DNA of 64,000 bases, taken from contig AL929603.2 in assembly GCA_000002445.1 (NCBI GenBank), positions 352,001 through 416,000 on the forward strand, given 5' to 3'. Under the pieces are notes generated by a model. It did no database searches. It was not told the origin of the DNA and saw nothing but the letters and a program-made list of their open reading frames with translations. Every line of letters starts with the position of its first letter. The stretch's first letter is position 1. Positions 14,946-60,223 of the stretch are shown in pieces. A program made the position numbers and the translations under genes. The DNA comes from Trypanosoma brucei. Lineage: Eukaryota.

Positions 14946-15864
14946 TATCCCTTTCTTGTGCCATCGTCATCGCAACACTATAAACAATAGGGAACGTGTG
15001 TAAACCTTTTCTCTATCTCTCTCTATCTCTCTCTTTTTTATTATTATTATTTTCTTTGTTCCATACAAACACACAAGCCGACTTAACATAAGGCAGTTGG
15101 GGCGGAAGCCGCGGGCACCACCACTGCTGTAGTTGTTTTTTTTTAGTTTTTCTTTGTTCTTTCGTGTCTTATCTTATTTTAATTTACTCTTGTTTTTTGT
15201 TTTAGTGCTTTTTTTCTTTGATTTATTGTTCTTGTCGGCACCGTTATTGTTATTGTTGGTGCTACTCCCAGTGGTGCATTACTTTGGACGAGGCAAAGTA
15301 GTCCATTTTTTTTTAAAAATTATTCCTCCTCTTTGTTCTCTTTCTTTTATTTAATTCATATTTTTTTTTACTATTTGTTACCGTTATTATTTGTTTATTT
15401 GTTGTTTCCATTTATTTTAATTTACTGTCCTGTCATTCACTTTCTTTACGAAGGTGTAAGTTGGGAAAAAACGTGCGCACGGGAGAGAAACAGAAATACA
15501 AATACATACAGAAGTTAGGGGAGAAATAAATTAAAGCAAAAAAGAAAAAAAAGAGAAGAAACAACAGAACGAAACAGAAGAAAAACGGAAGGGGAAAAAG
15601 AACAGAATTAAGTGACAACACAGTGAGAAGAAGGAGTGAAAGCGAAAAAGGGGGAAAACAAACAGTAACAAAGCAAAAGAAAAAAAGAGTGAAATTCTCT
15701 GCTTAATAAAAAGCAAGTGTATATAACATATATATCTGTATATATATATATATACCTATAATTTGTTTATTTATTTATATATTTGTCTTGTTATTGTTAT
15801 TGTTATTTTTTTTATTTTTGATTACTTTGCCATTGATATATATATATATATATATTTGTTAACA

Positions 15865-22877: not shown

Positions 22878-24872
22878 ATGGGAGGTGCGCCTTCTCGGGA
22901 GGCGACAGTTGTGTACTCGTATCTGCGAGGTACGTATGAAATTGGCCTCATTCCCCTTACAAGTGCTTTCTTTGGCCGGCCGTCAGGACGGGGGGAACAT
23001 GAAGGGGAAAATGTGCTACGGGGGCATTTCTTACAGATGCGGGAGGATCTCTTCGCGGCCTGTACACTCCCAACCCGAAACAAAGTGCTCTCATGGACAG
23101 AAATCGTGCCCAATCGATTTACGGGGGAGGACCTTGACGCGTTTTTGGAAATTGTGGACAAGCGGCTCTACCCAACAAATGCGGCAATGGTAGCAGATAA
23201 AAATTCTCCACTTCTCCCGGTCCCATGTGCTGTTTGTCTTGTCTGCAAAGATGGTCGGGAGCGCCGTGGCAGTTTTCGCTGGCGCGGGCGGAACATTGTC
23301 ATCATCGGTTACTTTGGATGCATGGATGAAAAGCTTGATGCGGCTTTCAAAACAGAGAAACGCACGCCACGCCAGGGGATGTACAGCATCACTGCCGCTG
23401 TATTTCCCTCTATTGGTGATCGTACGTTTGACCGCGTTCTTGCCTTAGCACCAGTGATGCTTCGGGGGCAGTTTGTGGGATCTGTGTTGCAACTCCGTAG
23501 GGGAGGAGGGGAATTCGCAACGCCCTTGAGTGAGCGTGGGGAAATGGTTGATGTCTCTAGTGAGGCTCCTTCGCTCGGAGCGGGAATTGGTGGAGTGGTA
23601 GGGCAATCAGATGGATTGATTCATGAGGATTCTGCAGTTGACAGCGCCTTCGAAATGTTCGTGGAGCGCGTCTCCCAGATGTCTGTATTCGTTGAGGTGG
23701 TCTCGGATAACTACTCGTCACTGAAGTCTCTAGTGGAAAATGTTGCCTTCATCCAGATTCATACACAGGCGGAACCTAAACAGTGTACGCTTGATCTTCC
23801 TCCAATCGTTCAGAACGCCTTTAATCGCACTACAACTGCGAGCAGTTGCGAGAAGAAAGCTGACGCGGAGGGTCACCATGCAGAAAAGTCGCCTCCACAA
23901 CGTTCATCTGCCATGGAACAGGGGTCTTCTTGTTGCACCGTGCAAGGAGTAAGCTGCTCGTTGGAGCGCGATGATTTAACCGATCTGTCCAGTGTGGAGC
24001 CTGAAGGTTCATCTCACTTAAGTAAAGTGCCAACGGAGGATGGTGGTAGTTTTCACTTCTGTACAGAGATAGTTCGTGTTCATTTCAACGAGAGATATGT
24101 GTCCCTAGCCATCCAGTGGCTCTCAAGTTTCTTCCGAAAACCAACCTTGCTTGAGAATGGTTATTGGGTACACTACTGCCTGAAAAAGGAAGAGGAAGTG
24201 ATACGCAGAATACTCTGCCATCGCGATACTATTGTCTCCGGTTGGCGAACGTCTCACCCCGAACTCGCTAATCAATACATGGGTGACGGCACGGACAAAC
24301 TACTGGAGCACGTACGGATCCTTCAGCACGAATTACAACAAGCCCGCAAGGCTGCAGAAGAACCTACACTGCGTAAAAAAGCCAGTACGCCTCCCACTCT
24401 GCCGTGTCCGAATACCACTTCAATGGCAGTGTTGGCACCACCCCCTCCGCCTCATGTGATGCCGTACGCCGTGCCTCCTCTTCCGTCACCGGTTTATTTT
24501 GTTCAACAGCAACCTGTGGGAAACCCCATGTTTGTGTCGTTGCTTCCTTTTCAGCAAGTGCAGCAGGTTCCACAAGTGCAACAGATCCCACAATTTCAGC
24601 AGGTGCCGCAAATTCAGCCACTGCAACAGATTTCGCATGTGCAGCAGATCCCTCAATTGCAGCAAACCCAACCGGTACAGTCGATATCGCATGTTCAGCA
24701 GATTTCGCATGTGCAACCGATTCATCAAGTGCAGCAAATCTCACATGTGCAACCGATGCCATTGTACCACCTCCAACCACCTGAATTACAACAGCCCTCG
24801 GTTTGTTATCTTCCCTTTGGGGATGGAGGAGCTCTACCCCCAAGTTATGTCATTCCAAGCTCGCTGTCGTAG
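22878..24872 (+). CDS. Paralogue C of the same family
   Basis: ATG start MGGAPSREATVVYSYLRGTYEIGLIPL. Shared motifs are PVPCAVCLVC, IIGYFGC and GDRTFDRV. The C-terminus has degenerate heptad-like repeats (QQISHVQ / QQIPQFQ). Confidence 0.75.
   Translation: MGGAPSREATVVYSYLRGTYEIGLIPLTSAFFGRPSGRGEHEGENVLRGHFLQMREDLFAACTLPTRNKVLSWTEIVPNRFTGEDLDAFLEIVDKRLYPTNAAMVADKNSPLLPVPCAVCLVCKDGRERRGSFRWRGRNIVIIGYFGCMDEKLDAAFKTEKRTPRQGMYSITAAVFPSIGDRTFDRVLALAPVMLRGQFVGSVLQLRRGGGEFATPLSERGEMVDVSSEAPSLGAGIGGVVGQSDGLIHEDSAVDSAFEMFVERVSQMSVFVEVVSDNYSSLKSLVENVAFIQIHTQAEPKQCTLDLPPIVQNAFNRTTTASSCEKKADAEGHHAEKSPPQRSSAMEQGSSCCTVQGVSCSLERDDLTDLSSVEPEGSSHLSKVPTEDGGSFHFCTEIVRVHFNERYVSLAIQWLSSFFRKPTLLENGYWVHYCLKKEEEVIRRILCHRDTIVSGWRTSHPELANQYMGDGTDKLLEHVRILQHELQQARKAAEEPTLRKKASTPPTLPCPNTTSMAVLAPPPPPHVMPYAVPPLPSPVYFVQQQPVGNPMFVSLLPFQQVQQVPQVQQIPQFQQVPQIQPLQQISHVQQIPQLQQTQPVQSISHVQQISHVQPIHQVQQISHVQPMPLYHLQPPELQQPSVCYLPFGDGGALPPSYVIPSSLS
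24590..24765 (+). repeat. Degenerate ~21-nt tandem repeat (consensus near CAGCAGATTTCGCATGTGCAA) inside the 3' end of paralogue C, about 8 copies, encoding QQISHVQ / QQIPQFQ units
   Basis: Repeating CAGCAGAT(T/C)(T/C)C(G/A)CA(T/A)(G/T)TGCA units are visible in the sequence, with a matching periodicity in the translation. Confidence 0.7.
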
Positions 24873-33709: not shown

Positions 33710-36700
33710 ATGGTTTCTAAAGAGGAGAATGCGAACATCAAAAAGGGGGAGGAAAGCGACGCATATTTGCAGGAGCGTGGGATAAATAATATTATCGAGA
33801 ACCTTTTGCACGATATCACAAAATGTAGACCGGATGATCACTTGGAGTTTATGAAAGAGTGGTTGGCGACTCGAGAAACTGGAAAAAAAGAATTTTCTGA
33901 TGGGAATGAAGCGAAGCAGATGATCGAATCACCACTTGAACGCGAGGCGACAGTTGGGGAAACGAGTGAATTCATTTCGGAAACAGTTCCCGAATTTGCC
34001 TTTTTCCAACCCGTGAAGAAACCATCAACGGTGTCGTGGGCGCTGGGTGCACGCGGTGTTGACAGCAGTCGTGCATTATTTACCTCCTCCAGAAAATCTC
34101 CGCAACCAATCGACTCGGTTAACACCACATCATCATCTTCAGGCAGCTCGGCACTTCAAAACAATTTAAGTGTTGCTGCTCAAGGCGTTTCAATGTGGGT
34201 CCCTTCCGCTGCTCCTCTTAAGGCATCGCCAGCAATTCCATCCAATCCATTACCTTTATCACCCACAACATCAGAAGGGCTCGTGAGTTGTGGAGAGCTG
34301 CCGTCGTCAGTGAAAAAAATAATAGAAGGAGTGCGGGGACTGTCGCCAGCCGACCACACAGCAGTAATAGCGTTTATTGACGGTTTGGCTAACAGAGCAG
34401 CAACCACACGATTAGGAAGGAGAAAGTTGTCAAATACGCGGGGATCATTCGGGGTTAATTTCAACGTTGATAGTTGTGGTCCCACCATGAGCGAGGGAGC
34501 CGTGCCACCATGTATTAGTTTGTTAGTGGATGATGACGGTAATGTGGGAGGGGAACGTAAACTCTCTTCGGTTCAATTACAACAATTAGTTGGCGATGCC
34601 TTAACAACAAGCATGATTGCAACTGGGGAAATATTCATGGAGGAGGAAAGAGCGGGTCAGTTGTCGGCCTCCACCACCCAAGGGGCGAGCACATTAGGAA
34701 GGAGGGTGAAAAAAGGAAGTAACTTGCAATTGGCACGTTTTACCGATTGTTTTTCCATGAGTGATCAGATTCTTCCTGGTTCGAACGGCGGCGTCGGCAG
34801 CGGCTCGGGTCCCAATGACGGAGCAACGGATTTGTCGCAAATGTTTTCGAGTGTTGATGAGTTTGCTGCCGTTCCAGTTAGTTTTATTCAACAATATATG
34901 CAACACAGTCGGCTCTCCTCAACCGTTAGTAGGGTTGATAGCGAGTACTCTTCGGGGGCGACCGTCAGCAGTGAGGATGAGGTAAGTGTGTTGCGTAAAG
35001 CTTTTCGGGCATGTAAGCGCTTCTCCGACTATAGCGAAACAGAAATAGAGGTACTCGCTCGTAATGCGCAAAGGTTGGAACTGCTTGCTGGTCACACATG
35101 TAACTTCAAGGACTCCATTTTCTACGTGCATAGTGGTTTGCTCCGCGTAGAGAACAATGAAGGTGTTCTTCGTGAACTTCCGGCAGGAACCTTCCTTGAT
35201 GCTCAATCCTGCGAGCAGCTTAATGATGCTAGGGAGCCGCTCGAGGTGCGTGCAGTATCTGATGCACTAGTTTTGATGTTGAAGGACGAGGCATTGGGAA
35301 CCATTCAGGAGAACGAAAAAAAACTGAAAAAACGGATGTTCGTAAGATGCCTGCAGAAGTCACCGCTTTTTGCAACAGTCCCGCTGAAACTTCTGAAAAA
35401 CATAGCCAATTATATGCATGTGCGAACGGTGGTCCAGGGAAAGGTATTGTTACGGAAAGGAGAGCATGTGGATTGGCTTTCAGTAGTTATCAGTGGCACG
35501 GTTAGTAGAGTAGTAGCCGGTGGCAATGGGAATCATGAAGTATTGCCGCAGAATAAGCAGAAAGGTGGCCCATCATCCTGTGCTGCTCCGTACATTTTAC
35601 CACCCGAATCCCAGAGCGGATTTGAGTTTGGTGAGCTTGAACTTCTGTTTAACTCGCCGATGCTTACGGATGTTGTTGCAACGACACCGGTAACTCTGGC
35701 ACGAGTTTGCACAGCATTTGTACACTCACTGCTACCCCACCAAATAATCAACGATATGAAATACGCTGTTGCTACCAATCCATCAGCTGGACCTCTTTTG
35801 ACCATAGCACCGGATGCAGTTCGTCACTCAGTTAAGATGTTTATGGAGCATTACTGTCAGTCAAAACGGTTGGGTGGAAGCCGACTGCGCAAAAGAATTA
35901 GTGTTAGCTCAACCGGGACAAATTCTACAAGAGGATTTGCAGATAGCGTCAGATGTGGAGTACTCGCATCCGGAGCCAAAGCGAGTGGCGGAGCAAACAA
36001 TCTCAAAGTGAGTTCGGCGGGAGAGATTGTGTATGCTGGAAAATGTAATTATTACCGCTTTCCTATAGCTGCTCTTGGGTTGGGGAACACAGTAGTGGTT
36101 GCCGTTGTATCGGATGGTACAATTATCCGCTGGAATGATAGCGCCGAGCGCATCACGGGGTTTTCGAGGCAGCAAGTGCTTGGGCACAGCGTCTTCTCTT
36201 CACTCACTACCGATTCTGCCCGGCGCTCCATGCGTGAGCAGTTGAAACTCGTGCGAAACGTTGCTGGGAACTGGAACCAGTACGTCAGTGCGGGTCTTTC
36301 TTCTCCACAAGTGTATCGTTTTCGTCAGGCGTCTGGAACACACTCCGTTGGGTTACTTTTGAGTGTTATTCCTTCTTCTGCGGGGTCCAATGAAGATGTT
36401 TTGTTACTTGTCGGGCGTGAAGCGGATAACAATGCCATGACAAGTTACGTTGAGGATACCACCCGGTGGTTGAATGACGTTCTGCGGCCGCAGCTGTCGG
36501 CGTTCCGTAAACGTGTGTGTGAATATGAAGAAAGGAAGTGGAATATTACTTTGGAGGAAGGCGCAAAGCTTCATGGCTATGTGGAGGCGTGTAACCAACT
36601 TATGGACCGTTACATGCGCCTTGCTAACCTAAACAAACATTCAGTAGATGCTCTGTGGAAACCGGTGCGGATGCAAAATGTGTTACGACAGTTTCTGCAG

Positions 36701-38938
36701 GAGGTGACACCTCATGTACAGCGGGCTGGGAACAAGCTTACCACAGACGTTGTGGCAGGGCCCAAGGGCGAGGTATTTCTTCATGTGGAATACGTGCTGG
36801 ATGTACTGCGTGGAATGGTACTTGATGCTAACAAGAATAGACCCAACTATCATATGCATATCGTTGTTGAGGCTGTTTTGCCCACCACTATGCATCAGGA
36901 TAGTACAACAATGCCCTGCCAGGGTGAAAAGTCCACTTCCTGTGACTTGGCATTTCACTCCGTCTTGGATCAATCGCGAGTGAGTCTCGACACACCCCAC
37001 TGCACAACATCGCAAATAACCGCGAGTGAAGACAGCATTCGACAACGCTCTGCTCACTCTCCCCGGCAATTAAGTAAATGGCCCTCATATATGCAGCTTA
37101 TTCGGTTTATATTTACGATTAGCGAAAGTGAGTCCGGCCTTTCGATGGCGAATGATAACACCAGTGGTGGGGCAGCTACCACCCCAAGTGGTGAAGTCCC
37201 GCGTAGCAGCAAAATTCATCATAGTTTTTATGCAGGAAAGGAATGTGGAGACCTTGTTGCTGCGATGGGAGGTGAGGTTTTTTCCGAGCAACGTGGAATG
37301 AACGGTTCGGGTCATTGTGTTACGGTAGAACTACCGCTATTACCGACGCCTTGGGAAGAGGAGGACGACGAAGATGAGGCACCTACATCTTCTACTACAG
37401 GACCGCCATTTGCTGTTATTCTTGCTGACAAGAATGAGAAGGAGCGCAACAGTGTCTGTAAATTGTTGTGGGCACGTCGGCACCCTGTTTTTTCTGTATC
37501 GTCATTGTCGGAAGTGATGATGAGGATTGAAAGCCCGGACATTGGTCTTCTCATTATAGATCCGTGTCATTTAGATATGACAGAGGGGGAAAGCAAGACA
37601 TTTGCCAAAGCTCCCTACCCATTCAACATGGAACATGGGGGAAATCATTTCGTTGTCCTTATTTACACCGAAGACTTCGACGACTGGAGGGTGCAAAAAA
37701 TGAAGAAGTGCAGTCACGTGATTGAGTTGCCCAAGCCAGCAACTACTTCACTGCTTCACTCCACTTTGTATGAAGCGGAGCGTATGGTTATTCGTGTGCG
37801 AGAGTACGAGGAGCGTGTGGCTCAAATGAGGTCTGCCTTTCGTGAGTTCCAAGCTGAGAGGTATGAAATGGGTAAAGTATTGGGCAGAGGATCGTATGGT
37901 GAGGTTTATGAAGTCGTTGATCGACTCACAGGTGGAAAGTTAGCCGTAAAGCGCATGACTCTTAGCGATGGTTTATTGGCTGCAGATGTTGCTGAGGAAT
38001 TTCTGTCTGTGACATCTATGCGGCATAAAAACATGATTCATTACTTCTATTGTGAGCAAGAGAGTGAGACAGTGCTGCGGTTATATATGGAGTTGGCATC
38101 TGGTGGGACTCTTAAAGATAAGATCCGTCAACATGGTGGACCGCTTCCGCTCCCAACTGTTGTGCAATACCTTGAGGATCTTTGTGACGGACTCGCTTAT
38201 ATCCACTCCAATTTGTTCGTGCATGGGGATATTAAAACTGCGAATGCGCTAGTTGATCAATATGGTCGTGTTAAAATTGGTGATTTTGGTACCGCAAAGC
38301 GTCTCAAACGAAAATCGGAAAAACTTTACAAATTTGTCGGAACCCCGCGTTTTATGGCACCCGAGCTCATTAACGCGGACGCCACACAGGGACATGGCTA
38401 CGATCAAAAGGGAGATATTTGGTCACTTGGATGTGTTGCTTTGGAGTTAGCGACGGGGAAACCACCATTTTGGCATATTGAAGAGGCACAAGGTATAGGT
38501 ATATTCAACTTCCTGATTAATTTGAAGGAAACACCAGATTTGTCGATAATCGAACATAGCGATCCTGACTTTTATGCATTTGTGAGGAGGTGCCTCCATG
38601 TTGATCCCAAGGAGCGACCAACAGCGCAGGAGTTATTGACAAGTAATCTCTTTCAGCGTGCGGGGACGAGTGTGAGGGATATGAGGTTGGCGCAGCAAAT
38701 ACAAGCTGCAACGAAGTTACATGAATATGCGGCGCTTAAGGAAGACAATAGTGACGATGAGAATGACGATGACGATGACGATGAAGATGATGATGATGAC
38801 GATATGTTCGTGGAGTGTGATTTTCCGTTAGTGTTCTCTGGAGTTGGCACATTTCCAAATGGCGACCAAAATGTTGCGACGAGTAACCGTGGCAATATTG
38901 ATAACGAAAAGAAAGGAACTGCAAAATTGAGTGGGTGA
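33710..38938 (+). CDS. Giant multidomain Ser/Thr protein kinase (1742 aa): RIIa-like docking domain, two cNMP-binding-like folds, PAS, histidine-kinase-like core, receiver-like domain, STE-type kinase, poly-Asp tail
   Basis: ATG start. Kinase subdomains are clear: LGRGSYGEV (Gly loop), LAVKRM (VAIK), HGDIKTAN (catalytic loop, non-RD), KIGDFGTAK (DFG), GTPRFMAPE (APE). Other domains are listed below as separate features. Confidence 0.9.
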   Translation: MVSKEENANIKKGEESDAYLQERGINNIIENLLHDITKCRPDDHLEFMKEWLATRETGKKEFSDGNEAKQMIESPLEREATVGETSEFISETVPEFAFFQPVKKPSTVSWALGARGVDSSRALFTSSRKSPQPIDSVNTTSSSSGSSALQNNLSVAAQGVSMWVPSAAPLKASPAIPSNPLPLSPTTSEGLVSCGELPSSVKKIIEGVRGLSPADHTAVIAFIDGLANRAATTRLGRRKLSNTRGSFGVNFNVDSCGPTMSEGAVPPCISLLVDDDGNVGGERKLSSVQLQQLVGDALTTSMIATGEIFMEEERAGQLSASTTQGASTLGRRVKKGSNLQLARFTDCFSMSDQILPGSNGGVGSGSGPNDGATDLSQMFSSVDEFAAVPVSFIQQYMQHSRLSSTVSRVDSEYSSGATVSSEDEVSVLRKAFRACKRFSDYSETEIEVLARNAQRLELLAGHTCNFKDSIFYVHSGLLRVENNEGVLRELPAGTFLDAQSCEQLNDAREPLEVRAVSDALVLMLKDEALGTIQENEKKLKKRMFVRCLQKSPLFATVPLKLLKNIANYMHVRTVVQGKVLLRKGEHVDWLSVVISGTVSRVVAGGNGNHEVLPQNKQKGGPSSCAAPYILPPESQSGFEFGELELLFNSPMLTDVVATTPVTLARVCTAFVHSLLPHQIINDMKYAVATNPSAGPLLTIAPDAVRHSVKMFMEHYCQSKRLGGSRLRKRISVSSTGTNSTRGFADSVRCGVLASGAKASGGANNLKVSSAGEIVYAGKCNYYRFPIAALGLGNTVVVAVVSDGTIIRWNDSAERITGFSRQQVLGHSVFSSLTTDSARRSMREQLKLVRNVAGNWNQYVSAGLSSPQVYRFRQASGTHSVGLLLSVIPSSAGSNEDVLLLVGREADNNAMTSYVEDTTRWLNDVLRPQLSAFRKRVCEYEERKWNITLEEGAKLHGYVEACNQLMDRYMRLANLNKHSVDALWKPVRMQNVLRQFLQEVTPHVQRAGNKLTTDVVAGPKGEVFLHVEYVLDVLRGMVLDANKNRPNYHMHIVVEAVLPTTMHQDSTTMPCQGEKSTSCDLAFHSVLDQSRVSLDTPHCTTSQITASEDSIRQRSAHSPRQLSKWPSYMQLIRFIFTISESESGLSMANDNTSGGAATTPSGEVPRSSKIHHSFYAGKECGDLVAAMGGEVFSEQRGMNGSGHCVTVELPLLPTPWEEEDDEDEAPTSSTTGPPFAVILADKNEKERNSVCKLLWARRHPVFSVSSLSEVMMRIESPDIGLLIIDPCHLDMTEGESKTFAKAPYPFNMEHGGNHFVVLIYTEDFDDWRVQKMKKCSHVIELPKPATTSLLHSTLYEAERMVIRVREYEERVAQMRSAFREFQAERYEMGKVLGRGSYGEVYEVVDRLTGGKLAVKRMTLSDGLLAADVAEEFLSVTSMRHKNMIHYFYCEQESETVLRLYMELASGGTLKDKIRQHGGPLPLPTVVQYLEDLCDGLAYIHSNLFVHGDIKTANALVDQYGRVKIGDFGTAKRLKRKSEKLYKFVGTPRFMAPELINADATQGHGYDQKGDIWSLGCVALELATGKPPFWHIEEAQGIGIFNFLINLKETPDLSIIEHSDPDFYAFVRRCLHVDPKERPTAQELLTSNLFQRAGTSVRDMRLAQQIQAATKLHEYAALKEDNSDDENDDDDDDEDDDDDDMFVECDFPLVFSGVGTFPNGDQNVATSNRGNIDNEKKGTAKLSG
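33758..33880 (+). other. RIIa-like dimerisation/docking domain (aa 17-57)
   Basis: The stretch LQERGINNIIENLLHDITKCRPDDHLEFMKEWLATRE resembles the PKA RII N-terminal DD helix pair (e.g. ..[30 protein letters not shown]). Confidence 0.5.
34982..35749 (+). other. Two tandem cyclic-nucleotide-binding-like folds (aa 425-680); the second retains FGELELL but lacks the phosphate-binding Arg
   Basis: Domain 2 reads FEFGELELLFNSPMLTDVVATTPVTLARV. It has a canonical beta-barrel/PBC layout with Glu present, but the PRAAT Arg is replaced by PMLTD. Domain 1 is more degenerate (FLDAQSCEQL). Confidence 0.55.
36032..36409 (+). other. PAS domain (aa 775-900)
   Basis: The stretch VVVAVVSDGTIIRWNDSAERITGFSRQQVLGHSVFSSLTTDS ... 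VGLLLSVIP...DVLLLVGRE shows the classic PAS sensor pattern. Confidence 0.65.
36443..37348 (+). other. Degenerate histidine-kinase core: DHp-like helix with His replaced by Asp, plus HATPase_c-like N-box and G2-box (aa 912-1213)
   Basis: WLNDVLRPQLSAF matches the H-box sHELRTPLnAi, with Asp where the phospho-His sits. VRMQNVLRQFLQEV matches the X-region. HVEYVLDVLRGMVLDANKNRPNYHMHIVVE matches the N-box (RL.QVL.NLl.NAiKyT..G.I.V). GDLVAAMGGEVFSEQRGMNGSGHCVTVELPLLP matches the G2/G3 region (GLGLaIv..lve.hGG.i.v.S..G.Gs.F.f.lPl). These are by-eye matches only. Confidence 0.45.
37400..37744 (+). other. Receiver (CheY-like REC)-like domain (aa 1231-1345)
   Basis: FAVILADKNE matches beta1 and the acidic pocket. 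GLLIIDPCHLDMTEG matches beta3 with a phospho-acceptor-position Asp. VVLIYTED matches beta4 with the conserved Thr. HVIELPKPA matches beta5 with the conserved Lys-Pro. Confidence 0.45.
37862..38659 (+). other. STE/MAP3K-like Ser/Thr kinase catalytic domain (aa 1385-1650), followed by a poly-Asp tail at 38747-38803
   Basis: All core kinase motifs are present. GTPxxMAPE is typical of the STE group. HGD replaces HRD. The acidic run DDENDDDDDDEDDDDDD is encoded by GAT/GAC repeats. Confidence 0.8.
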
Positions 38939-49853: not shown

Positions 49854-51774
49854 GTCAGTATTTGGTGTCGGATCGTGCTTTGTTTTACTCGTGTTTAGTT
49901 GCAATGCTCCTTTGTTGCTGTTGTTGTTGCTGCTGCTTTTCATTTTCGTGTTCCTGTGATTTCGTTTCCAAATGTGTGGTGGGTTAACTTATCACCTCCT
50001 TGATAGGTTGTGGGTATGTCAGAAAAGGGTGGTGGAGAGTATGTGGTGCTGAAGGCTTGTATAAGATATCTCGCAAAATAGACAACAATATATGAGTGAT
50101 GGTACTGTTTTGTCAGTGGTTATTATTACCATGATGTTACTTGCTCTCCATACCTCAGGACTTGTTTAATTGGGCGATTTAATTATACAGCCCCCTTCGC
50201 ATTCTTCTCCCCTGTTTTTTTTTTCATTCTCTGCGCGGTACTCAACCTGGTCTGTTGCTTTCTCTAACGGGAGGAGCCCGTGATGCATTCGACACTCATA
50301 ATGTGTTGCCCTACATTTTACTGTTACTGTTTCTTTCGTTCTTTGGATGCGTCGTTTTTCTCATATGTGATTTCTGTTTTCCCTTTTTTGCCGTCGGATT
50401 ACCGTGGTTCAACTTATTTTCCCCTTTATTTTCTTTTCATTCACCCCACAATGCTGGGAGTACCGTACGGACGAGGGAGAAAAGAACAAGCACCAGCAAA
50501 AAAAAAACAAAAGAAAGGAAAGAGGATTGCGTGGAATACCGTTACAAACTTAAGGAACAAACATGGAAGGGGATCGTGATGGTCGACACCGCATGTATCA
50601 TATTAAAATAAACACGATGGCATGAAGCAGCACGTGCCGTGACAGCAATAACAGCAGTAAAAAAAAAAAAAAGCATATTTGCTTATATTTTGCTGTTTTA
50701 AAAAAAATGATAAAGGAGCGAATTCATGAGCCTAGTGTTTTGGAGGCATATTGGGGCGCATGTTCCTCTCTCATGCACGGTCAAGTAAAAATCTGCGCTT
50801 ATCTCTCCTTCCCTTAACTTTGCACTCCTCTTTTTCATTCATGAAGGTGAAAAATTACGGAGAAAATGCTTTTTTTTTTCTTTTCTGCGGTCAACTCGTA
50901 TTTTGTATGTGATACCTTACAATCTTTTTTTTGATGACAAAATTTCATTTCTTTCCTTCCTTCTCTTTTGTCTCTTACTCCTCATACGATGTGTTGTTGT
51001 TGTTTTTTTCGTATGGTACCACCTCATTGCAAAAGGGATATGGAATGATATTTTGGGAAATAACATAGTTTGATATGAAATAGTAGCAAAAAGGTAAGAA
51101 GGGTGAAAAATCGTTACTCCCCCCCTTTAAAAAAAAAAAAAGAACACACGTTTACTTTAGTTTCCTTTAGTTAATTTGTTCCACTGCTGACGATCGGTGA
51201 TGATCGTGTTGATCTGTTGTGACTTCCCTTCACTCGCCTCTGGTAGCACATGTTCCTGCGGTTAAGCTGCAGTTTTTTTTTTGTTGTTAAAGGTGAAAAG
51301 TTTAGCTTCCATTGTGAATGTAAGTGCGCGTGGGAAACAGACTGTCCCAAATGCCGCATCAACGGTAATCGTGAGAATTCTCCCACATGTGCTTTGAAAT
51401 GCTATTTTTTTTTTAAAAGCAAATATGCAAAAGTTACACTTTTCAGCCGGTGGGGTGTTAATATATTTGGACAAATACTCACATATATATATACGCATAT
51501 TCGCGGGGATATTGATGTGTGCATGAAGGGGAGAAAGGATTATTTTCTGCATTGTTACCATGAAATACAGGCAATTTTAGTGCAGAAGCCCGCACTTTTT
51601 CCTCTTAAAAAGTAGTGTTACGGCCCTTTCTGATTCCTTCATTCCCAAACAAATACAAAAACATGTAAGTGTGCAAGTATTAACATTCCTTTCGAGTGCC
51701 TTCTTTCTTTCTTTGTTGTTGTTTCTTTTTTATCGCTCCTATCACGATGACAGAAGAGGTTGAACAAATTTGAC

Positions 51775-52680
51775 ATGTCACTTCGGCGCCACGTGATTAC
51801 TCGGAGCATTTCAGTCCACAACCGCTTTATTTCTTCCAGTGGAGAACAAAAAACTGGAGGGTCGCGGGGTGGTTTCTTTTCGGTTCTTCGCTACGGACCT
51901 CGCAATCGAGCTGAACTATTCGGTCTCTGCCTCGGTTGTGCCATGTGCCCTTTATCGATTTATTTGATTAACTGGTGTGAAGGCTGCAGCAACAGGAATA
52001 ACAACACGCAACCGGAGTTGGTACTCGGTAATGAAACATTTGTAACTCATGGGGTTGCAGCTCCCGACAAGGGATCCAAATATCCTCTGGGAGGACCCTT
52101 TAGATTGCGCGAGAGCCGTACGGGAAATTATATCACCGATAAGGAACTCTTTCAGGATCATTGGACGCTATTATACTTCGGCTTCTCCAAGTGTGCGGAG
52201 GTGTGTCCATCTACGTTGCGTTTTATTACAGATGTCATGAAGGCATGTGATGAGAAACTGGCGGGTGACAAAAACTTATCGACAGAGGCTGCGAGGTTGC
52301 AGGCGGTGTTTCTTAGCGTTGATTCACGGCGTGACACGCCTGAGGTTCTTGAAGGGTTTGTTTCAAAATACGACCCTCGAGTCCGAGGACTTACCGGAAC
52401 CTCAAAGGAGATTGAGCAGGCGGCGAGGGCGTGGCGTGTGTATTATTCATCAATTGACGAAACGGATGAAGAAAAATCGGCGCGTGAGGCGAAGGGAGTG
52501 CCGATGGTGGGCGCCGATGATGATACGTACCAACTGGATCACAGTAGTGCAATATATCTTGTTGGAGTGGATGGAAAGTTGAAAGATTTCTTTTTCAAGG
52601 AAATGGGCGTTGCCGATGCCGTTGGAAGGTTGGAGGTGCATCTTCAAGATGTCTATGGATTTAAGGACACACGCGGTTGA
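51775..52680 (+). CDS. SCO1: SCO1/SenC family cytochrome-c-oxidase assembly copper chaperone (thioredoxin fold)
   Basis: The track start is a TTG; the first ATG is at 51775. The CxxxC motif is in HWTLLYFGFSKCAEVCPSTL. The conserved His is in DHSSAIYLVGVDGK. The N-terminal region looks like a mitochondrial presequence. Confidence 0.8.
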   Translation: MSLRRHVITRSISVHNRFISSSGEQKTGGSRGGFFSVLRYGPRNRAELFGLCLGCAMCPLSIYLINWCEGCSNRNNNTQPELVLGNETFVTHGVAAPDKGSKYPLGGPFRLRESRTGNYITDKELFQDHWTLLYFGFSKCAEVCPSTLRFITDVMKACDEKLAGDKNLSTEAARLQAVFLSVDSRRDTPEVLEGFVSKYDPRVRGLTGTSKEIEQAARAWRVYYSSIDETDEEKSAREAKGVPMVGADDDTYQLDHSSAIYLVGVDGKLKDFFFKEMGVADAVGRLEVHLQDVYGFKDTRG

Positions 52681-53677: not shown

Positions 53678-56600
53678 ATGAAAAAGACGCTTTCATGTCG
53701 GAGGCGGCTAATTCTTGGAATGAGCATTGAAGATGCACAAAGTAAGTTTGATTCTCCCGAATCCCGCGTAGCCCTGCGACTTGCTCATGAGCGACATAAT
53801 CAAGGGGTTTACCACGAGCTCAACCTCGCACAACGACTGCGTAATAGGCTCCCAAGTGAGCGTAAGTACCATTTAGTTCGTCACACGAAACCTAGCGTCA
53901 AAGGCTTCCAGGCTTATATTAAATCCAGCCCAGACGACTACGTTGTGAAGGAGCTTTGGTATGGAAAGAAGGCAACTTTACCGAAACTAGCGGGGGATGT
54001 GGGCGCTGCCGCCGCCATTACCAGCGGACAGAGTGTTGTGGACAGTAGCCCAAATGTTATTCCTTCTATCATTCAAGAGAAGGGGGTTGGCGGTCCTGTG
54101 CCTTGCGATCCACTTTATAATGGTTATTCAAACCCTAGTGGGGTTGGTGCTGTGGTGGATAACCAAACTGGGCCTGTGTGTGGTGTTAATTCAAGTGACG
54201 AATGCGCGAGGGATGATACCAGCGCGGCCTCTGTGGAAGGCAGCAGCATGAGTAGTCAGGCGTCGGTGGAAGCTTATATAGGACCTCAGCTTGGCGAGGA
54301 GATGGACGCGTATTCACGACACCGTACCATATTTATGGCAGAATTGAAACGGGTTGCAAAAACACTAAGTAACGAAGCAAAGCGGCAGCTCCTTATACGA
54401 CGTAGCAAAGGAGCCGCACCATCTGCCAGGCAAATGTCTGTTGTCGACCGACTAGTTGAGGAGGTACGGGAGGCAGAGGAAAAAGGTTACACAAGCCTCT
54501 CATCCTCCTCGCATTTGTTGGAGCCGCTGGGGCTCTCCCTTAACGTCTGCACAAAAAGGGACAAACGAGTGCTGGAGGCATTCCGTAGTCCACTGCTTTG
54601 CGTTCCTGCGGAGGAGAACTACATCTCCATCTCACTATGGGTTGCAGGCGCTCTCATAGAGAATAACGAACTAGCGACAGAGTTTCCATACTACATCGCG
54701 AAACATGCGAGCCCTGATTTGGATGAGTGTGACGTCATCACGTCGCCTAACAGTGTCCCGAGGGCGAGCATAGACGTGTATTTTTCTCTGGAACTGTACA
54801 AGCTGCAGCAAAGCATAGGGGTTGATGGTGTTTTGGCGCTTCGACGATTTATTGGTAGGGCAATGATACGTCAGCACGATCCGTTGCCGACGACGCCGTC
54901 TATTGCGTTTAACATGCGATTAAAGCAGCGCGAATGTGGTGGGTTGTGCTCAGGGGAATCTACACAAATTCCTTGGTTGCATGTAATTAAGGCAAAGGTT
55001 GCCTCGATATCAGGCACGGTATTGGAAGTTTCCTCCGACGACTCACCATCTACTACTGTTATGCGAGAGGCAATAGGACATGTTTGGAGGACATGGGGGA
55101 ACCTCGTAAAGGATCTGCATGTACACGGTGATCTTGACTACCTCTATGTTTCCGTGCGACCGGAGGTAGATGTGCAAGTAGGAATGCCACTGCTGGGGGA
55201 TTCGACCGGGGGAGTGCTTAACTGTAGTAAAGGGAAAGTATTGTCAACGTCGACGTCGCTGGGGAATTCCTCTCAACAGCTACTTCAGGGTCAGGATGGT
55301 CAGGATTGGAAGGGTCAAAATGGTGGGTCGAACGGTGCTAATTTGGGTAGGGCAATTTCTGGAAAAGGAGGGAAAAACGGTTCCCTTTGGAATGGTTTTA
55401 ACTCTCGTAAAACACGAGCAACAAACGTCATTCTGCCAACAGATTTTGTTGTTGTTGAGTGTTTGCTTGAGAAAAGGGGGCTGCCTCATCGTCTAGTTGT
55501 TGAAGACATTACCGAAAGTCTTACGGAAATGCAAAGACAAGCAATGGAAGTGCAGCGCCTGGCTGTTATTGATGAGGCACATCAACAAAGCCAGCAGTAT
55601 GTTACTGAGAATGAGGAGGATGAGTCATGTGACGAAGGGATTGCCCAATTTCCCGTCGATGTGCGTCCAGTTCTGTACGCGCCAACGATAACGGTGTCTC
55701 ACGCGGGTGTGATCGACTCAGCATCACACAGTTTCCAGCGGATTCGTATCCGTGGGAGTTGCCTCGCACACATTGAGGCGCTTGCGAAGGCTTTGGGCAG
55801 CGGAGAACACTTCGTGGAACGTGAAGGAATACACTTGTACGCAACCAAAACTAGTAGCCAGGGTACTTCTTTACCTCAGCTTCCACCAAACCTTCATTTT
55901 TCCAGGACTCACGCGGATGTCAATGAACACGCAGCAACTAAGAGGCTGATTGGTCATCACGCTTCATCTAGTCATGCTGTAATGGAGCAACGTGCAGCGA
56001 GTGGATACTTTCATCCTTACCAAACGCTGAAACCAATGCAATATATGATCGCTGATCACGACGAAAGGGAGTTTTGGCGGGAGCACTTTTATAAACTATC
56101 AGATATTACACTTGTATTTCATGATCGTGTATGTGCTGCAGACATCAACAATTCGCGTCAGTGGTCTTCTACGCTGAAGTCTCAGTTGCTATCAATCGGC
56201 CGGCAGCGTAGTGGACAGATGGGACTGGAAGATGAGTCGGACGACACCGCGGTGAATGGACCGAAAGATGAAGAAGGTGATTCTGCTGGACGTGCGCGAA
56301 AGAAGAAACCGAAGAAAGGAAGAGGTAAGCGAGCAGCGCAGGGAGATCTGGAAGACGTAGTCTCCACCATGAGCCCTGAGAAGATATTTGAATACCTATG
56401 CTTTGACATGGAGGTTACTAGTGCATCGTATGATCTCCGTATGGGAGATAATGACGGTTATGATTATCGTGTAAAGCTGCGTCGAATTCCGCAGAGCCAC
56501 TTTCCACTTGTAAAACCAGCCATGGTCTCTCTTCAGAAGCATGGTTTCATCAATTACTTTGGACCGCAGCGATTTTCTTCATACACCAGATATAACATGC

Positions 56601-58249
56601 ATCCCGGCTTGCACCTGCTGAAAGGCGAGTTTCACGCCGCAGCCAGTATCATCGTACAGCAATTCTACATGGACTCTGACCTTGCAGCTGAGAAGAGACG
56701 AAACGGTCACACCATCGAGAAGATGTACAGCTCGAAGGGAGCAGGGTTCCGGTTGCCGGATATAGATCGCTCGTTTGGTGGCAGACGGTCCGTTACTGAA
56801 AATGGATCCGCTCTGCAATCTGTTCTCAGCAATGCACTCCAGGCATCGTCACTTCTTGGGCTAAATGAAAATTCGGCTGAAATGGAAAGTTATAGCTCCT
56901 CACCAAAAGACCAGCAGATCATGAACGTAACTAATGGTGCTTCGGTGTTAGACCCCTGTGGGGAAGCGTTTCTACGCGTTGTTGGACCCAAAGCATGTTC
57001 CATGCTCGTGCATGAGTTCCTTGCCTTCCTCTGGAATGACATCGTCAATCAGAGGTTGCAGCGGTACGGCACATTCGCCATTCTCCCCGGCGATCTCGTG
57101 CGCTTAAATCCATTAGCATCGCCCCACTCGAATGAATTCGGCCGCGTTGTATATGCTTCAAAGAACAGCATTGAGAAGGGTAAATACACGTGCTATGACG
57201 TAGTCCTACCGGTCCCTGGTGCCGGTGTTGAGCTTCCTGATAATCACACAGCTGACCTATACGTTGTTACACTGAAGCGCATGGGCATTCTGTTTAACCC
57301 TGAGTCCAAACAGTGGGATATTTTCCGATCGCGAAGCAACTTTGGTAACGATGGTGCTTTACATGACGGTGAAGCGGCCTTTGCATCGTCACCATACAAC
57401 CGTTTTTCAACTTCTTTTGCCCTCATGGAGGAGGAATTGGGCGGCGAAACAAGCGTGATGAATTTTGCACACGAAAGCCAGGTAGGCGAGGAGGGGGATG
57501 CCGGCGGTATGGTAACAGAAGGAGTTTTGTCGGACGGTCGAGGGCTCCGGCGCGACTTACGACATGAGGGAAACATGGGTAATCTTCTGGGAGTAAATAT
57601 ATGGTGCTCCTACAGGCATATGCTCGTCAACCCGTCCTCGCAACTACGCTGGAGATTTCAGTCAGGTCGCACCGGTGATCCATACCAGCGATGGGCATTC
57701 GGAGTTCGTAACACCTTCATGGGAAGGGAGACCAATGTTTCGTCCCTCTCTGGGGCTTTGTTGGATAAGGGCACTCTCGGTCGCAGTGCTGAGCAACCTC
57801 AGCAGCAACTGTTACTTTTAGGAAATGGCGCACCAGGGAGGTCAGGGAAGGACTCCAGGGGAGGAAAAAGACGAGCGCGTACATTACCGGCTGCACCGTA
57901 CTGGTTGCCGGAAAAGAATAATGGTTGTCTCGAGTTGTCCTTCCAACTCCCCTCTAGCGTCTACCCCAGCATGTTGTTGCGGGAGGTAACAAAAAGTGAC
58001 GTTAATAGCCCTGACGTGGTAGATCTCGACCGCCCGCTGATTGACACGCGCGCGGAGTCGTGGAACGGACTTACGGCGGACCAGCAGCAAACATACAGAC
58101 GATACCTGGCTAAGAAGCGGCAAAAGCTGTTTACAGAGGCACCACGAGCTATCAATATAGCACTTCTGCATCAGCACATCTTCCGTAGTGGCGGCATGAG
58201 GCGAGGCCTAATACCCTCCATGCGTGGCTATGATAATGTCTCGAAATGA
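53678..58249 (+). CDS. Large (1523 aa) protein with a C-terminal TruD/Pus7-like pseudouridine-synthase domain and a ~900-aa N-terminal extension of unknown function
   Basis: ATG start. TruD-family motifs appear in order: FHDRVCAAD (a possibly degenerate GxKDxxAxT catalytic motif), YDYRVKLRRI (NxFxIvLRxv), GFINYFGPQRF (PNYFGxQRFG), FLAFLWNDIVNQRL (SALFNQIVAERL). Confidence 0.75.
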   Translation: MKKTLSCRRRLILGMSIEDAQSKFDSPESRVALRLAHERHNQGVYHELNLAQRLRNRLPSERKYHLVRHTKPSVKGFQAYIKSSPDDYVVKELWYGKKATLPKLAGDVGAAAAITSGQSVVDSSPNVIPSIIQEKGVGGPVPCDPLYNGYSNPSGVGAVVDNQTGPVCGVNSSDECARDDTSAASVEGSSMSSQASVEAYIGPQLGEEMDAYSRHRTIFMAELKRVAKTLSNEAKRQLLIRRSKGAAPSARQMSVVDRLVEEVREAEEKGYTSLSSSSHLLEPLGLSLNVCTKRDKRVLEAFRSPLLCVPAEENYISISLWVAGALIENNELATEFPYYIAKHASPDLDECDVITSPNSVPRASIDVYFSLELYKLQQSIGVDGVLALRRFIGRAMIRQHDPLPTTPSIAFNMRLKQRECGGLCSGESTQIPWLHVIKAKVASISGTVLEVSSDDSPSTTVMREAIGHVWRTWGNLVKDLHVHGDLDYLYVSVRPEVDVQVGMPLLGDSTGGVLNCSKGKVLSTSTSLGNSSQQLLQGQDGQDWKGQNGGSNGANLGRAISGKGGKNGSLWNGFNSRKTRATNVILPTDFVVVECLLEKRGLPHRLVVEDITESLTEMQRQAMEVQRLAVIDEAHQQSQQYVTENEEDESCDEGIAQFPVDVRPVLYAPTITVSHAGVIDSASHSFQRIRIRGSCLAHIEALAKALGSGEHFVEREGIHLYATKTSSQGTSLPQLPPNLHFSRTHADVNEHAATKRLIGHHASSSHAVMEQRAASGYFHPYQTLKPMQYMIADHDEREFWREHFYKLSDITLVFHDRVCAADINNSRQWSSTLKSQLLSIGRQRSGQMGLEDESDDTAVNGPKDEEGDSAGRARKKKPKKGRGKRAAQGDLEDVVSTMSPEKIFEYLCFDMEVTSASYDLRMGDNDGYDYRVKLRRIPQSHFPLVKPAMVSLQKHGFINYFGPQRFSSYTRYNMHPGLHLLKGEFHAAASIIVQQFYMDSDLAAEKRRNGHTIEKMYSSKGAGFRLPDIDRSFGGRRSVTENGSALQSVLSNALQASSLLGLNENSAEMESYSSSPKDQQIMNVTNGASVLDPCGEAFLRVVGPKACSMLVHEFLAFLWNDIVNQRLQRYGTFAILPGDLVRLNPLASPHSNEFGRVVYASKNSIEKGKYTCYDVVLPVPGAGVELPDNHTADLYVVTLKRMGILFNPESKQWDIFRSRSNFGNDGALHDGEAAFASSPYNRFSTSFALMEEELGGETSVMNFAHESQVGEEGDAGGMVTEGVLSDGRGLRRDLRHEGNMGNLLGVNIWCSYRHMLVNPSSQLRWRFQSGRTGDPYQRWAFGVRNTFMGRETNVSSLSGALLDKGTLGRSAEQPQQQLLLLGNGAPGRSGKDSRGGKRRARTLPAAPYWLPEKNNGCLELSFQLPSSVYPSMLLREVTKSDVNSPDVVDLDRPLIDTRAESWNGLTADQQQTYRRYLAKKRQKLFTEAPRAINIALLHQHIFRSGGMRRGLIPSMRGYDNVSK

Positions 58250-59410
58250 GAATGCCTCACGCGGGGGAACCCTTAAGTGTAATTTCGTGTAAAAAGCTAA
58301 CAAAAGAAAAAAAAAGGAGAGTTATTCACATACTAAGGTAAGAGAGAGTGAGAAAAAAAAAAGGAGTATCAATCAGGGAGAGACACTTAATTCCTGCCTC
58401 TTGGTTCATCCGAACGCGGCCCTCCGGGGAGCTGTGTTAAGTTTGGCTCTGAAGCATTGTAGGTACTGCGCTGTGAGCGTAAAAGCGTATCGCAGTTTGG
58501 GGGGGGAGAAGGAAAGGTTCCGCAATGCTGCGTTTGCGCTCGTTTCACATACAGTCGCGTCATATGGTGCTGTACGCATTTAGATGGGAGATTGGACGGC
58601 TGATGCTACAGCGAAAGCCCCATTTTGCGTTGCTATACACATGTGTGCACCGAGCGCACTTCTCCTTTTTTAAAAAAAAGCGGTAGGGTGAAGGCTGGGA
58701 GAAGTGCCCTGTTTGATGGGTGCCTCATGTCAACGGTGGGTTCTAGCGCAGCTGAAGTGGGTTGGTGATCTCAGCTTATAAAACAATATGTTTCTTATTC
58801 ACTGTGGAAGCTTTATTACCCTCCGCATGTTCTTCCTTTTAAAATTTAACTGTTATTATTGTTGTTATTATTATCAATTTTGGTGACTTCCAGCATTCAT
58901 AGAACACTGTGTATATGTGACGACATCTAGTTCACCGTGCTACGGTTTGGAGGAGATGATGCAGCCACCCCACTTGGAGGTTGAGTGAGTGTGCTGCCCC
59001 ACGTTTGAACCCGATCCATGAGCATTCACTAATCAATCAACCATCAGGTTATTGTTTATCATGTCGTGCCCCTCGGTAGCTCTCTGAATGTTTCAGCACG
59101 TTGTCTTCTCTCTTCCCTTCAATGGTTCTCTATGTTTTTCCCATACGCTGCGCACGCTTGTGAATTTCGCACTTCAAATAAGCGGTAACGCGGTAAAATA
59201 GGGGAGAAAGTGAAAAGGGGCGGAGAGGACACCCAGGGACCAAGTTGTATCCGTGCATGGTGGTTTGTTAAAACCAGTGATAACCGACTGACCGTGTGTT
59301 CATAAGGATAGCAAAGTGACTTCGTCGATATACGGACAGACAAAAGCGCACGCAGTTAGGCTAAAATAGGTGATAACTATTAGTGGCAGGTGACCAAGAA
59401 AGTACCACCA

Positions 59411-60223
59411 ATGCAGCGCGATGTGTACGCGTCGCTCATTAAGAAGCGGCACAAACAAATGGTCCCGCTGTTGATCCACCAGGTCTCCGGCGACATCACC
59501 CGTGAGAATATTTTTGACGAAGTCTTTCATGGCTACAAACTTCGTCGGATTGTTCTGATGACGCACATGGCTGCAACACCTGCTACGCTTCCGAGACTCC
59601 CGCGTGATATCATTGTGTCCGACTTTGACAAGCTGAAAGCCATTCACCAACCACACTTTCACTACAAACTACTTCCCCTTCTGTGCACTGACTTTGAAGC
59701 GTTTTCTGCGCTTCAGGGAATTTGTGCGAGCGCCAACTCACCCTTTACAATAGAAGACCGCAAGGACCCTCAGGGGCTAACGCATCGGCTCTCCAATGGC
59801 TGTTCGGAGCGTCAAGCGTTGTGCGAATTTTTTGACCCCCATATCGCACCAGCAGAGAAGCTTGTGCCGGTGTTCTCACGCAAACTCCCTATTTCCGCCG
59901 TCGTATTTGATGGTTTGCTCCTCAAGCAAAACTATCCTAAGGTGGCCGCATTGCTCACAGTCCATGAGGCCGCTTCAGAGAAAAGTATAATAGAACGTGC
60001 TATCATGAGAGACTTCTTTGTGTCACCGCTGTATACCAAGGTGAGTGGTAACAGCGACGTGGCTCAGTCACTCCGCCTGGTGCATCATTGCACGCACTTC
60101 ATGGCTCTTAAGCGTGCGGTAGGTAGCGATGCTCCCAGTAGGCAGTCACTAATGCGACTCGCTGCGGAGAAGAAGTTGTTTATGTACGAAAAAATCGGCG
60201 ACGAGTACCAATTCGTTCACTGA
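59411..60223 (+). CDS. Hypothetical protein (270 aa)
   Basis: The track start at 59390 is a GTG; the first ATG at 59411 gives MQRDVYASLIKK. It lies on the array strand with coding-like composition and no recognisable family. Confidence 0.55.
   Translation: MQRDVYASLIKKRHKQMVPLLIHQVSGDITRENIFDEVFHGYKLRRIVLMTHMAATPATLPRLPRDIIVSDFDKLKAIHQPHFHYKLLPLLCTDFEAFSALQGICASANSPFTIEDRKDPQGLTHRLSNGCSERQALCEFFDPHIAPAEKLVPVFSRKLPISAVVFDGLLLKQNYPKVAALLTVHEAASEKSIIERAIMRDFFVSPLYTKVSGNSDVAQSLRLVHHCTHFMALKRAVGSDAPSRQSLMRLAAEKKLFMYEKIGDEYQFVH

Follow-up and report, generated by a model that had tools for sequence, protein, structure and literature searches.

Tb927.1.1600 of Trypanosoma brucei, a Pus7-branch protein with a split fold and a candidate mitochondrial pseudoenzyme

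We analysed a 64,000-nt window of Trypanosoma brucei DNA (GenBank assembly GCA_000002445.1, contig AL929603.2, positions 352,001 to 416,000), in which a complete open reading frame (ORF) at window positions 53678..58249 of the + strand encodes 1523 amino acids (aa) followed by a stop codon, exactly where an earlier reading made from the sequence alone (hereafter the sequence-only reading) had placed it. The product is T. brucei Tb927.1.1600 of chromosome 1 (UniProt Q4GZ59; XP_001218862.1; identical within its 90 % cluster), a protein of 168.3 kDa annotated as 'pseudouridine synthase TruD, putative', which we identified through the adjacent SCO1/2 gene (Tb927.1.1580) and the UniProt accession given in a published table. 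Our preferred reading, held with some reserve, is that Tb927.1.1600 is a kinetoplastid-type mitochondrial scaffold or pseudoenzyme derived from Pus7, which would bind RNA without modifying it. The putative TruD annotation and, since 2017, the flag as a mitochondrial candidate were already known. New, in that no description of them was found in the searchable literature, are the division of the fold around an orphan 293-aa domain, the true position of the catalytic loop, and the family-wide decay of the catalytic Asp to Glu and of the neighbouring Lys to hydrophobic residues. No paper in the searchable literature names Tb927.1.1600 in its main text, and it is absent from the TrypTag supplements examined.

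Family membership and the split Pus7 fold

The TruD/Pus7-like assignment made by the sequence-only reading was borne out by the Pfam profile that it had proposed for checking (PF01142), which scored 59.8 bits against a gathering cut-off of 27 bits (E = 2.8e-16) and was carried by all orthologues. A phmmer search of the PDB retrieved yeast Pus7 (7mzv, 5e-11), human PUS7 (5kkp, 1e-10) and mt-LAF4, an assembly factor of the T. brucei mitoribosome (1.6e-4), while an HMMER profile built from 22 orthologues retrieved the same three proteins at E = 4.8e-25, 2.4e-19 and 1e-7, respectively; with 90.6 bits for Pus7 versus 33.2 for mt-LAF4, Tb927.1.1600 is nearer to Pus7 in sequence. When the family was compared with 20 fungal Pus7 sequences by hhalign, aa 916-1450 aligned to Pus7 294-673 at 99.6 % (E = 1.5e-23). 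An AlphaFold2 (AF2) model of aa 570-1523 (predicted template modelling score 0.63), submitted to Foldseek, matched structures of the TruD family only (E = 4e-12 for both 5kkp and 7mzv, 1.4e-7 for mt-LAF4, and about 0.02, with a probability of 1.00, for E. coli TruD). Both the Foldseek search with this predicted model and the hhalign comparison thus recovered a TruD fold with the TRUD insertion domain, and the assignment to the TruD/Pus7 family is far beyond chance.

The bacterial equivalog profiles gave a different picture: NCBIfam TIGR00094 reached 44.4 bits versus a cut-off of 172.2 bits, and the other NCBIfam TruD equivalogs reached 19-33 bits versus cut-offs of 413-654. These scores lie far under the cut-offs, which places Tb927.1.1600 in the eukaryotic Pus7 branch and not among the bacterial-type TruD proteins. 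In T. brucei, another gene, Tb927.10.9050, is the canonical PUS7 orthologue (bioRxiv 10.1101/2023.02.23.529727), and Tb927.1.1600 is an extra, nuclear-encoded Pus7-branch paralogue of kinetoplastid-type organisms. Its orthologues, of 1316-1639 aa, were found in Trypanosoma, Leishmania, Porcisia, Leptomonas, Novymonas and Phytomonas; the distant members P0024 and P0026 (locus L001 961-8466; run SRR22803254) reach about 2500 aa. In T. b. gambiense, the corresponding protein, XP_011771333.1, bears the label 'T. brucei spp.-specific protein', which is wrong because orthologues occur throughout the trypanosomatids.

The sequence-only reading had stated that the first ~900 aa match nothing and had proposed a Pus7 domain recruited to a larger scaffold. 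Neither statement survived, as the fold begins near aa 60 and is broken up by two insertions, A (aa 95-579) and B (aa 720-915 of the protein). HMMER and hhalign detected three collinear Pus7 matches, the first (aa 60-99 to Pus7 40-79) covering beta1, the second (aa 660-725 to Pus7 237-306) the catalytic loop and the following helix, and the third, the strong hhalign match described above, the TRUD domain and the C-terminal half. The first two matches are gap-free, stand in the right order and abut the third, and a joint MAFFT alignment independently recovered both placements, with G677 and Q687 invariant in 46/46 sequences (27 family members and 19 Pus7). In the family alignment, conservation over residues 1-94 and over most of aa 205-500 and 585-715 is on a par with that of the C-terminal half. 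By these alignments, the Pus7 fold is intact, but expanded and split by lineage-specific insertions, rather than fused to an N-terminal partner.

The beta1 strand (aa 60-94; 53855..53959, + strand) was placed by HMMER, by a collinear hhalign match (P = 0.007) and by column counts. Its motif GFQAYIKSSPDDYVVKE (aa 76-92) aligns with Pus7 GFrGqIKQRYTDFLVNE, K82, D87, Y88 and E92 being conserved; extended to aa 94, GFQAYIKSSPDDYVVKELW is the counterpart of Pus7 GFrGqIKQRYTDFLVNEI, and no family member departs from G76, F77, Q78, Y80, D87, E92 and W94. Insertion A then occupies some 485 residues between beta1 and beta2. Pus7 carries an insertion of its own at the same beta1/beta2 site (about aa 75-220 in the fungal alignment), and the kinetoplastid protein has enlarged that site. 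The inserted segment opens with an acidic linker of variable length and sequence that is predicted to be disordered (aa 95-202; 53960..54283, +) and closes with a second disordered linker of low complexity, rich in G, S, N and Q (aa 496-579; 55163..55414, +). Between them lies the core (aa 203-495, 293 aa; 54284..55162, +), a well conserved and compact alpha/beta domain modelled with a predicted local distance difference test (pLDDT) score of about 90. A hidden Markov model search with this core against 1.84 billion representative proteins returned 10 matches, all of the same family, and no PDB relative was found; the core is an orphan, lineage-restricted domain without a detectable sequence or structure relative. 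We considered two origins for insertion A: an enlarged Pus7 insertion domain, for which hhalign gave a non-significant P = 0.078 with only an '..AF..' patch shared, and a degenerate internal copy of the TruD core, which was rejected (hhalign P = 0.42). PTDFVVVE (aa 587-594) resembles the beta1 motif PDDYVVKE because it is beta2 of the fold.

The first part of the TruD core resumes at aa 580-719 (55415..55834, +), with beta2 (DFVVVECLLEKRG), the long helix alpha1, the catalytic-loop beta-hairpin and the next helix, all at a pLDDT of about 90 in AF2 model 2. In that model, the predicted strand at 591-598, helix at 604-645, hairpin at 672-681/684-694 and helix at 696-708 fit the Pus7 core. Insertion B (55835..56422, +) follows, disordered at aa 720-784, folded as a helix, a long strand and a helix at aa 789-849, then passing through a disordered basic stretch into helices that lead to the TRUD domain. 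The TRUD domain and C-terminal catalytic half (aa 916-1450; 56423..58027, +) keep GFINYFGxQRF, W-N...R, PxPG, YR and MxxRE, and are interspersed with lineage-specific disordered loops at aa ~1013-1029, 1071-1088, 1223-1285 and 1349-1403. The protein ends in a basic tail (aa 1451-1523, isoelectric point 10.9; 58028..58246, +) with two predicted helices at aa ~1467-1503 and, at its very end, a near-invariant peptide, ...ALLHQxIFRSxGxRxSLxPxxRxYDxVSK, which is predicted to be disordered. Pus7 has no such tail, which is likely to be a partner- or RNA-binding element.

The catalytic loop

Three independent alignments (HMMER, hhalign and MAFFT) matched the Pus7 loop YAGTKDRRaVTcQR to SHAGVIDSASHSFQR (aa 674-688) in a gap-free register, and the true catalytic loop, SHAGVIDSASHSFQRIRI (aa 674-691), aligned with Pus7 YAGTKDRRaVTcQRlSI. 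Its full counterpart, SHAGVIDSASHSFQRIRIRGS (aa 674-694), is encoded at 55697..55759 on the + strand, with Asp680 specified by the codon GAC at nt 55715-55717 and Ile679 in place of the Lys of GxKD. An alignment with Pus7, which the sequence-only reading had put forward as the means of locating the catalytic Asp, thus led to Asp680. The three motifs that it had quoted were indeed present in order (GYDYRVKLRRI at aa 927-937, GFINYFGPQRF at 956-966 and LWNDIVNQRL at 1118-1127), as was VFHDRVCAAD (aa 813-822; 56114..56143, +), followed by the K/R-rich stretch GRARKKKPKKGRGKRAA (aa 871-887; 56288..56338, +), a disordered segment at which a basic stretch is found in all orthologues. However, VFHDRVCAAD, which it had taken for the counterpart of GxKD, falls in a long, confidently predicted beta-strand (aa 806-818) of insertion B, in a region (aa 700-925) without a Pus7 match, and the column of its Asp, 816, reads D21/N4/S1/H1 across the family.

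Residues were counted column by column in 27 family members and 19 fungal Pus7 sequences. At column 680, where all 19 Pus7 sequences have the catalytic Asp, the family has Glu in 22 members, Asp in 4 and Met in 1 (P0025), so that the Asp is not invariant among the orthologues. The four with Asp are those of T. brucei, T. cruzi and T. conorhini and the distant member P0154, in which a 12-residue insertion comes directly after this residue. Asp and Glu alternate between close relatives (Asp in T. brucei versus Glu in T. vivax; Asp in T. cruzi versus Glu in T. theileri), and in T. brucei a single change at the third codon position would turn this Asp into Glu. At column 679, the Lys of GxKD (19/19 in Pus7) is replaced by Leu (n = 12), Ile (n = 11) or Val (n = 4); columns 681-682 are variable in the family versus Arg-Arg in Pus7 (R19/R19); and the Asn of GNEF (column 928; 19/19 in Pus7) is Tyr in 27/27 members. 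Common to the family and Pus7 are G677, S/T685, Q687 and R688 and, within GFINYFGPQRF, N959, Y960, R965 and F966, so that the NYFGxQRFG motif is retained. The cleft motifs invariant in the family comprise GFINYFGxQRF, W1119, N1120, R1126, P1178, P1180, G1181, Y1312, R1313, M1432, R1435 and E1436.

A cleft that is kept while the catalytic residues decay is the usual signature of a ligand-binding pseudoenzyme, and by these columns the active site looks degenerate at the level of the family, though less clearly so in T. brucei itself, where the Asp is retained. Catalysis has probably been lost in the Tb927.1.1600 family, and the database name probably overstates the activity of the protein. E. 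coli TruA D60E is reportedly inactive, as Huang and colleagues are said to have described in Biochemistry in 1998. Pseudouridine synthase (PUS) enzymes universally carry the catalytic Asp; RPUSD3 does not, and is considered a pseudoenzyme (PMC12710931). In Drosophila, Pus7 D274E is a catalytically dead allele that fails to rescue the mutant (bioRxiv 10.1101/2025.05.12.653498). The sequence-only reading had described the protein as divergent and possibly inactive; a divergent and probably inactive Pus7-like protein is also what we found, on the strength of another motif than the one it had named (E22/D4/M1 at column 680, with the Lys absent in 27/27). A non-acidic residue in all orthologues, which it would have taken as the mark of a pseudoenzyme, was not literally observed, 26 of the 27 members being acidic at this column; 22 of those have Glu, the substitution that is dead in Drosophila Pus7.

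Mitochondrial import and the weighing of the readings

The ImportOmics study of Peikert et al. (2017) includes Tb927.1.1600 in its list of 'new mitochondrial candidate proteins' (PMC5436138). On RNA interference (RNAi) against the import pore ATOM40, it was at 0.28-fold in gradient-purified mitochondria (log2 -1.84, p = 2.2e-4, 4/4 replicates; PMC5436138 Suppl. Data 1, 4, 6) and at 0.39-fold in organelle-enriched fractions, and its neighbour SCO1/2, a bona fide mitochondrial protein, was at 0.29-fold in the same experiment (PMC5436138). TargetP and MitoFates were both positive for Tb927.1.1600 (PMC5436138 Suppl. Data 6). From these published proteomics data, the protein is imported into the mitochondrion in an ATOM40-dependent manner. 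The N-terminal extension (aa 1-59; 53678..53854, +) is conserved in all family members; its first 16 residues, MKKTLSCRRRLILGMS, are basic and without acidic residues, as are the first ~16 residues in 26/26 aligned members, and are followed by three short helices. This composition suggests that MKKTLSCRRRLILGMS is a mitochondrial presequence.

Given a mitochondrial protein with a kept cleft and a decayed catalytic loop, we favour, as stated above, a pseudoenzyme that most likely binds RNA and that would, by analogy with mt-LAF4 and mt-LAF3, most plausibly have a role in mitoribosome or mitochondrial RNA biogenesis. In such a scheme, the Pus7 cleft would grip an unpaired segment of mitochondrial RNA, possibly with a flipped-out base, without isomerisation; the insertion A domain, the basic loop (aa 871-887) and the C-terminal tail with its peptide would dock other proteins or RNA; and Tb927.1.1600 would serve mitochondrial RNA metabolism as a scaffold or RNA chaperone, with mitoribosome biogenesis the most plausible setting. 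Repurposed dead enzymes are common in the ribosome and RNA machines of kinetoplastid mitochondria (mt-LAF3, mt-LAF4, RESC5, RESC14 and GAP1/2). Tb927.1.1600 would be a further, uncharacterised example, the largest PUS-fold case seen here, with conservation spanning Trypanosoma, Leishmania and Phytomonas. It also stands as a concrete candidate for taking part in mitochondrial RNA biogenesis at a stage not yet captured by electron cryomicroscopy. The natural Asp/Glu polymorphism at a universal catalytic position offers a clean handle for genetic testing.

Several points weigh against this reading. T. brucei itself has Asp680 in the catalytic-Asp column of Pus7, a placement on which alignment and predicted secondary structure agree; the residue there is acidic in nearly all members (26/27); and the catalytic loop, together with nearly all other TruD motifs, is under strong purifying selection, as would be seen in an active enzyme. 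The beta1 and catalytic-loop matches are each weak by score (hhalign P about 0.007-0.008), and their placement is one of collinearity, motif register and predicted secondary structure rather than of residue-by-residue superposition of coordinates. Among 177,635 distinct PDB sequences, no chain identical or nearly identical to Tb927.1.1600 was found, only its paralogue mt-LAF4 being matched, and the protein is therefore absent from every solved structure of a kinetoplastid mitoribosome or assembly intermediate. No reports of RNA binding, interaction or knockdown of Tb927.1.1600 were found in the searchable literature. Finally, the K/R-rich loop is similar to a nuclear localisation signal (NLS).

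The most serious alternative, which we hold to be possible yet rather unlikely, is an active mitochondrial pseudouridine synthase, acting, for example, on imported tRNAs (at positions 13/35-like), on 9S/12S rRNA or on mRNAs, with Asp680 (Glu in orthologues) as the catalytic base and with insertions that confer substrate specificity. Its strength lies in the Asp of T. brucei, T. cruzi and T. conorhini and the acidic residue of 26/27 members, in the invariance of the loop G, S/T, Q and R and of the NYFGxQRF, WN, R, YR and RE motifs, and in the location of the protein in the mitochondrion, where RNA substrates exist. Yet the GxKD Lys and the pair of Arg residues that follows the Asp, present in 19/19 Pus7 sequences, are lost in 27/27 members, the Asn of GNEF is Tyr in all of them, Asp and Glu alternate freely among close relatives, with Met in one member, and P0154 interposes 12 residues right after the Asp. 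Moreover, an Asp-to-Glu change inactivates Drosophila Pus7 in vivo (bioRxiv 10.1101/2025.05.12.653498). A bolder variant, to which we give little credence, is that the family still modifies RNA although the canonical Lys-Asp dyad is gone, being either a Glu-using PUS or a Pus7 fold repurposed for another mitochondrial RNA reaction; if that were true, the orphan 293-residue domain would be a new substrate-selecting module.

It is highly improbable that Tb927.1.1600 works as a Pus7-like factor in the nucleus, nucleolus or cytosol, in which case the K/R-rich loop would be an NLS and the signal in mitochondrial proteomics an indirect one. Such a localisation would accord with the resemblance of GRARKKKPKKGRGKRAA to a classical NLS, with the conservation of a basic stretch at that site, and with the nuclear or cytosolic nature of the closest solved relatives, the enzymes Pus7 and PUS7; but the protein was found in gradient-purified mitochondria and was 3.6-fold depleted there on ATOM40 knockdown, like SCO1/2 (0.29), both TargetP and MitoFates predict a presequence, the N-terminus is basic and acid-free wherever it could be aligned (26/26), and a separate canonical PUS7 gene exists. 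Least credible of all is the fusion envisaged by the sequence-only reading, namely a scaffold of ~900 unrelated N-terminal aa joined to a C-terminal Pus7 domain, with the altered catalytic motif in VFHDRVCAAD: although the strongest profile matches lie within aa 913-1450 and the VFHDRV Asp is conserved in 21/27 members, aa 60-94 and 580-719 align collinearly with the beta1 and the beta2-alpha1-beta3/catalytic-loop unit of Pus7, a C-terminal part alone would miss the catalytic-loop half of the fold, and VFHDRV sits in a strand of insertion B, outside any Pus7 match and with N, S or H at column 816 in six members.

Surrounding genes and comparison with known systems

An operon-like context was considered and set aside, the neighbours being unrelated genes of a polycistronic unit, and no Rfam or tRNA matches were found anywhere in the window. 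Three consecutive genes encode mitochondrial proteins: SCO1/2 (Tb927.1.1580) at 51760..52680, Tb927.1.1600, and Tb927.1.1610 at 59390..60223, the last identified by gene order and by its size (277 aa versus 30.7 kDa). Tb927.1.1610, an uncharacterised hypothetical protein, belongs to the mitochondrial reference set and has an ATOM40-RNAi ratio of 0.107. The occurrence of this mitochondrial trio in one polycistronic unit is probably a coincidence.

Elsewhere in the window, three ORFs of the + strand (8261..10252, 15763..17622 and 22878..24872), of 663, 619 and 664 aa, respectively, belong to no Pfam family and share the N-terminus MG(A/G)xPS(H/R)(D/E)A...EV(C/G)L(V/I)PL. By BLASTP, the first two matched each other at E = 1e-5 and the third at about 0.1; from their sequences, the three look like divergent tandem paralogues, and their Met-Gly start suggests N-myristoylation. 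The second of them probably starts at an ATG situated 34 codons into the listed TTG ORF. Between 24873 and 33709 lies an 8.8-kb AT-rich stretch (GC 0.29-0.40) with no + strand ORF of at least 180 aa, which yielded nothing but simple TTA/ATT and purine-rich repeats and is long for an intergenic region inside a T. brucei polycistron. Next to it, 33710..38938 (+) encodes a 1742-aa protein kinase with an N-terminal cyclic-nucleotide-binding domain and a PAS domain, an unusual, sensor-kinase-like combination.

Among known systems, Pus7/PUS7 (yeast 7MZV, human 5KKP) is the best match in both sequence and structure. It shares with Tb927.1.1600 the TRUD domain, the insertion at the beta1/beta2 site and the order of the motifs (beta1, catalytic loop, GNEF-like strand, NYFGxQRF, WN...R, PxPG, YR and MxxRE). 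Tb927.1.1600 is, however, 2.3 times longer; its ~485-aa insertion A, with the orphan 293-aa domain, is unlike the Pus7 insertion (hhalign P = 0.08), and it adds a second insertion of ~200 aa, a basic C-terminal tail and a mitochondrial presequence. In its family, the K-D-R-R of Pus7 is degenerate and the Asn of GNEF has become Tyr. Bacterial and archaeal TruD (E. coli 1SB7, 1SI7 and 1SZW; archaeal 1Z2Z) have the same core fold and TRUD domain, but in about 350 aa, without the eukaryotic insertions and with an intact GxKD.

In terms of function, the best analogy is mt-LAF4 (6YXX/6YXY/7AOI; L. tarentolae 7AM2), which is likewise kinetoplastid, mitochondrial and of TruD/Pus7-type fold. This TruD-family protein has a disrupted active site, is considered inactive, and serves as an RNA-binding scaffold that caps rRNA in the precursor of the mitochondrial large ribosomal subunit (mtLSU) (PMC7957421). 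It differs from Tb927.1.1600 in its length of 616 aa without insertion A, in a degenerate motif (NYFWLDRF in the aligned segment) where Tb927.1.1600 keeps NYFGxQRF, and in its presence in solved assembly intermediates, none of which contains Tb927.1.1600. The mt-LAF3/RPUSD4-like proteins and human RPUSD3 are also mitochondrial PUS-fold proteins, with a role in rRNA or mRNA expression that is independent of catalysis; they belong, in contrast, to the RluA family and have no large insertion within the fold. The catalytic Asp of mt-LAF3 is dispensable, D211A complementing fully (bioRxiv 10.1101/2023.02.23.529727). In Diplonema, a mitochondrial PUS of the TruD superfamily co-purifies with both mtLSU baits (PMC10325924), and the distant members of the family described here (P0023-P0026 and P0154) might include this mtLSU-associated protein.

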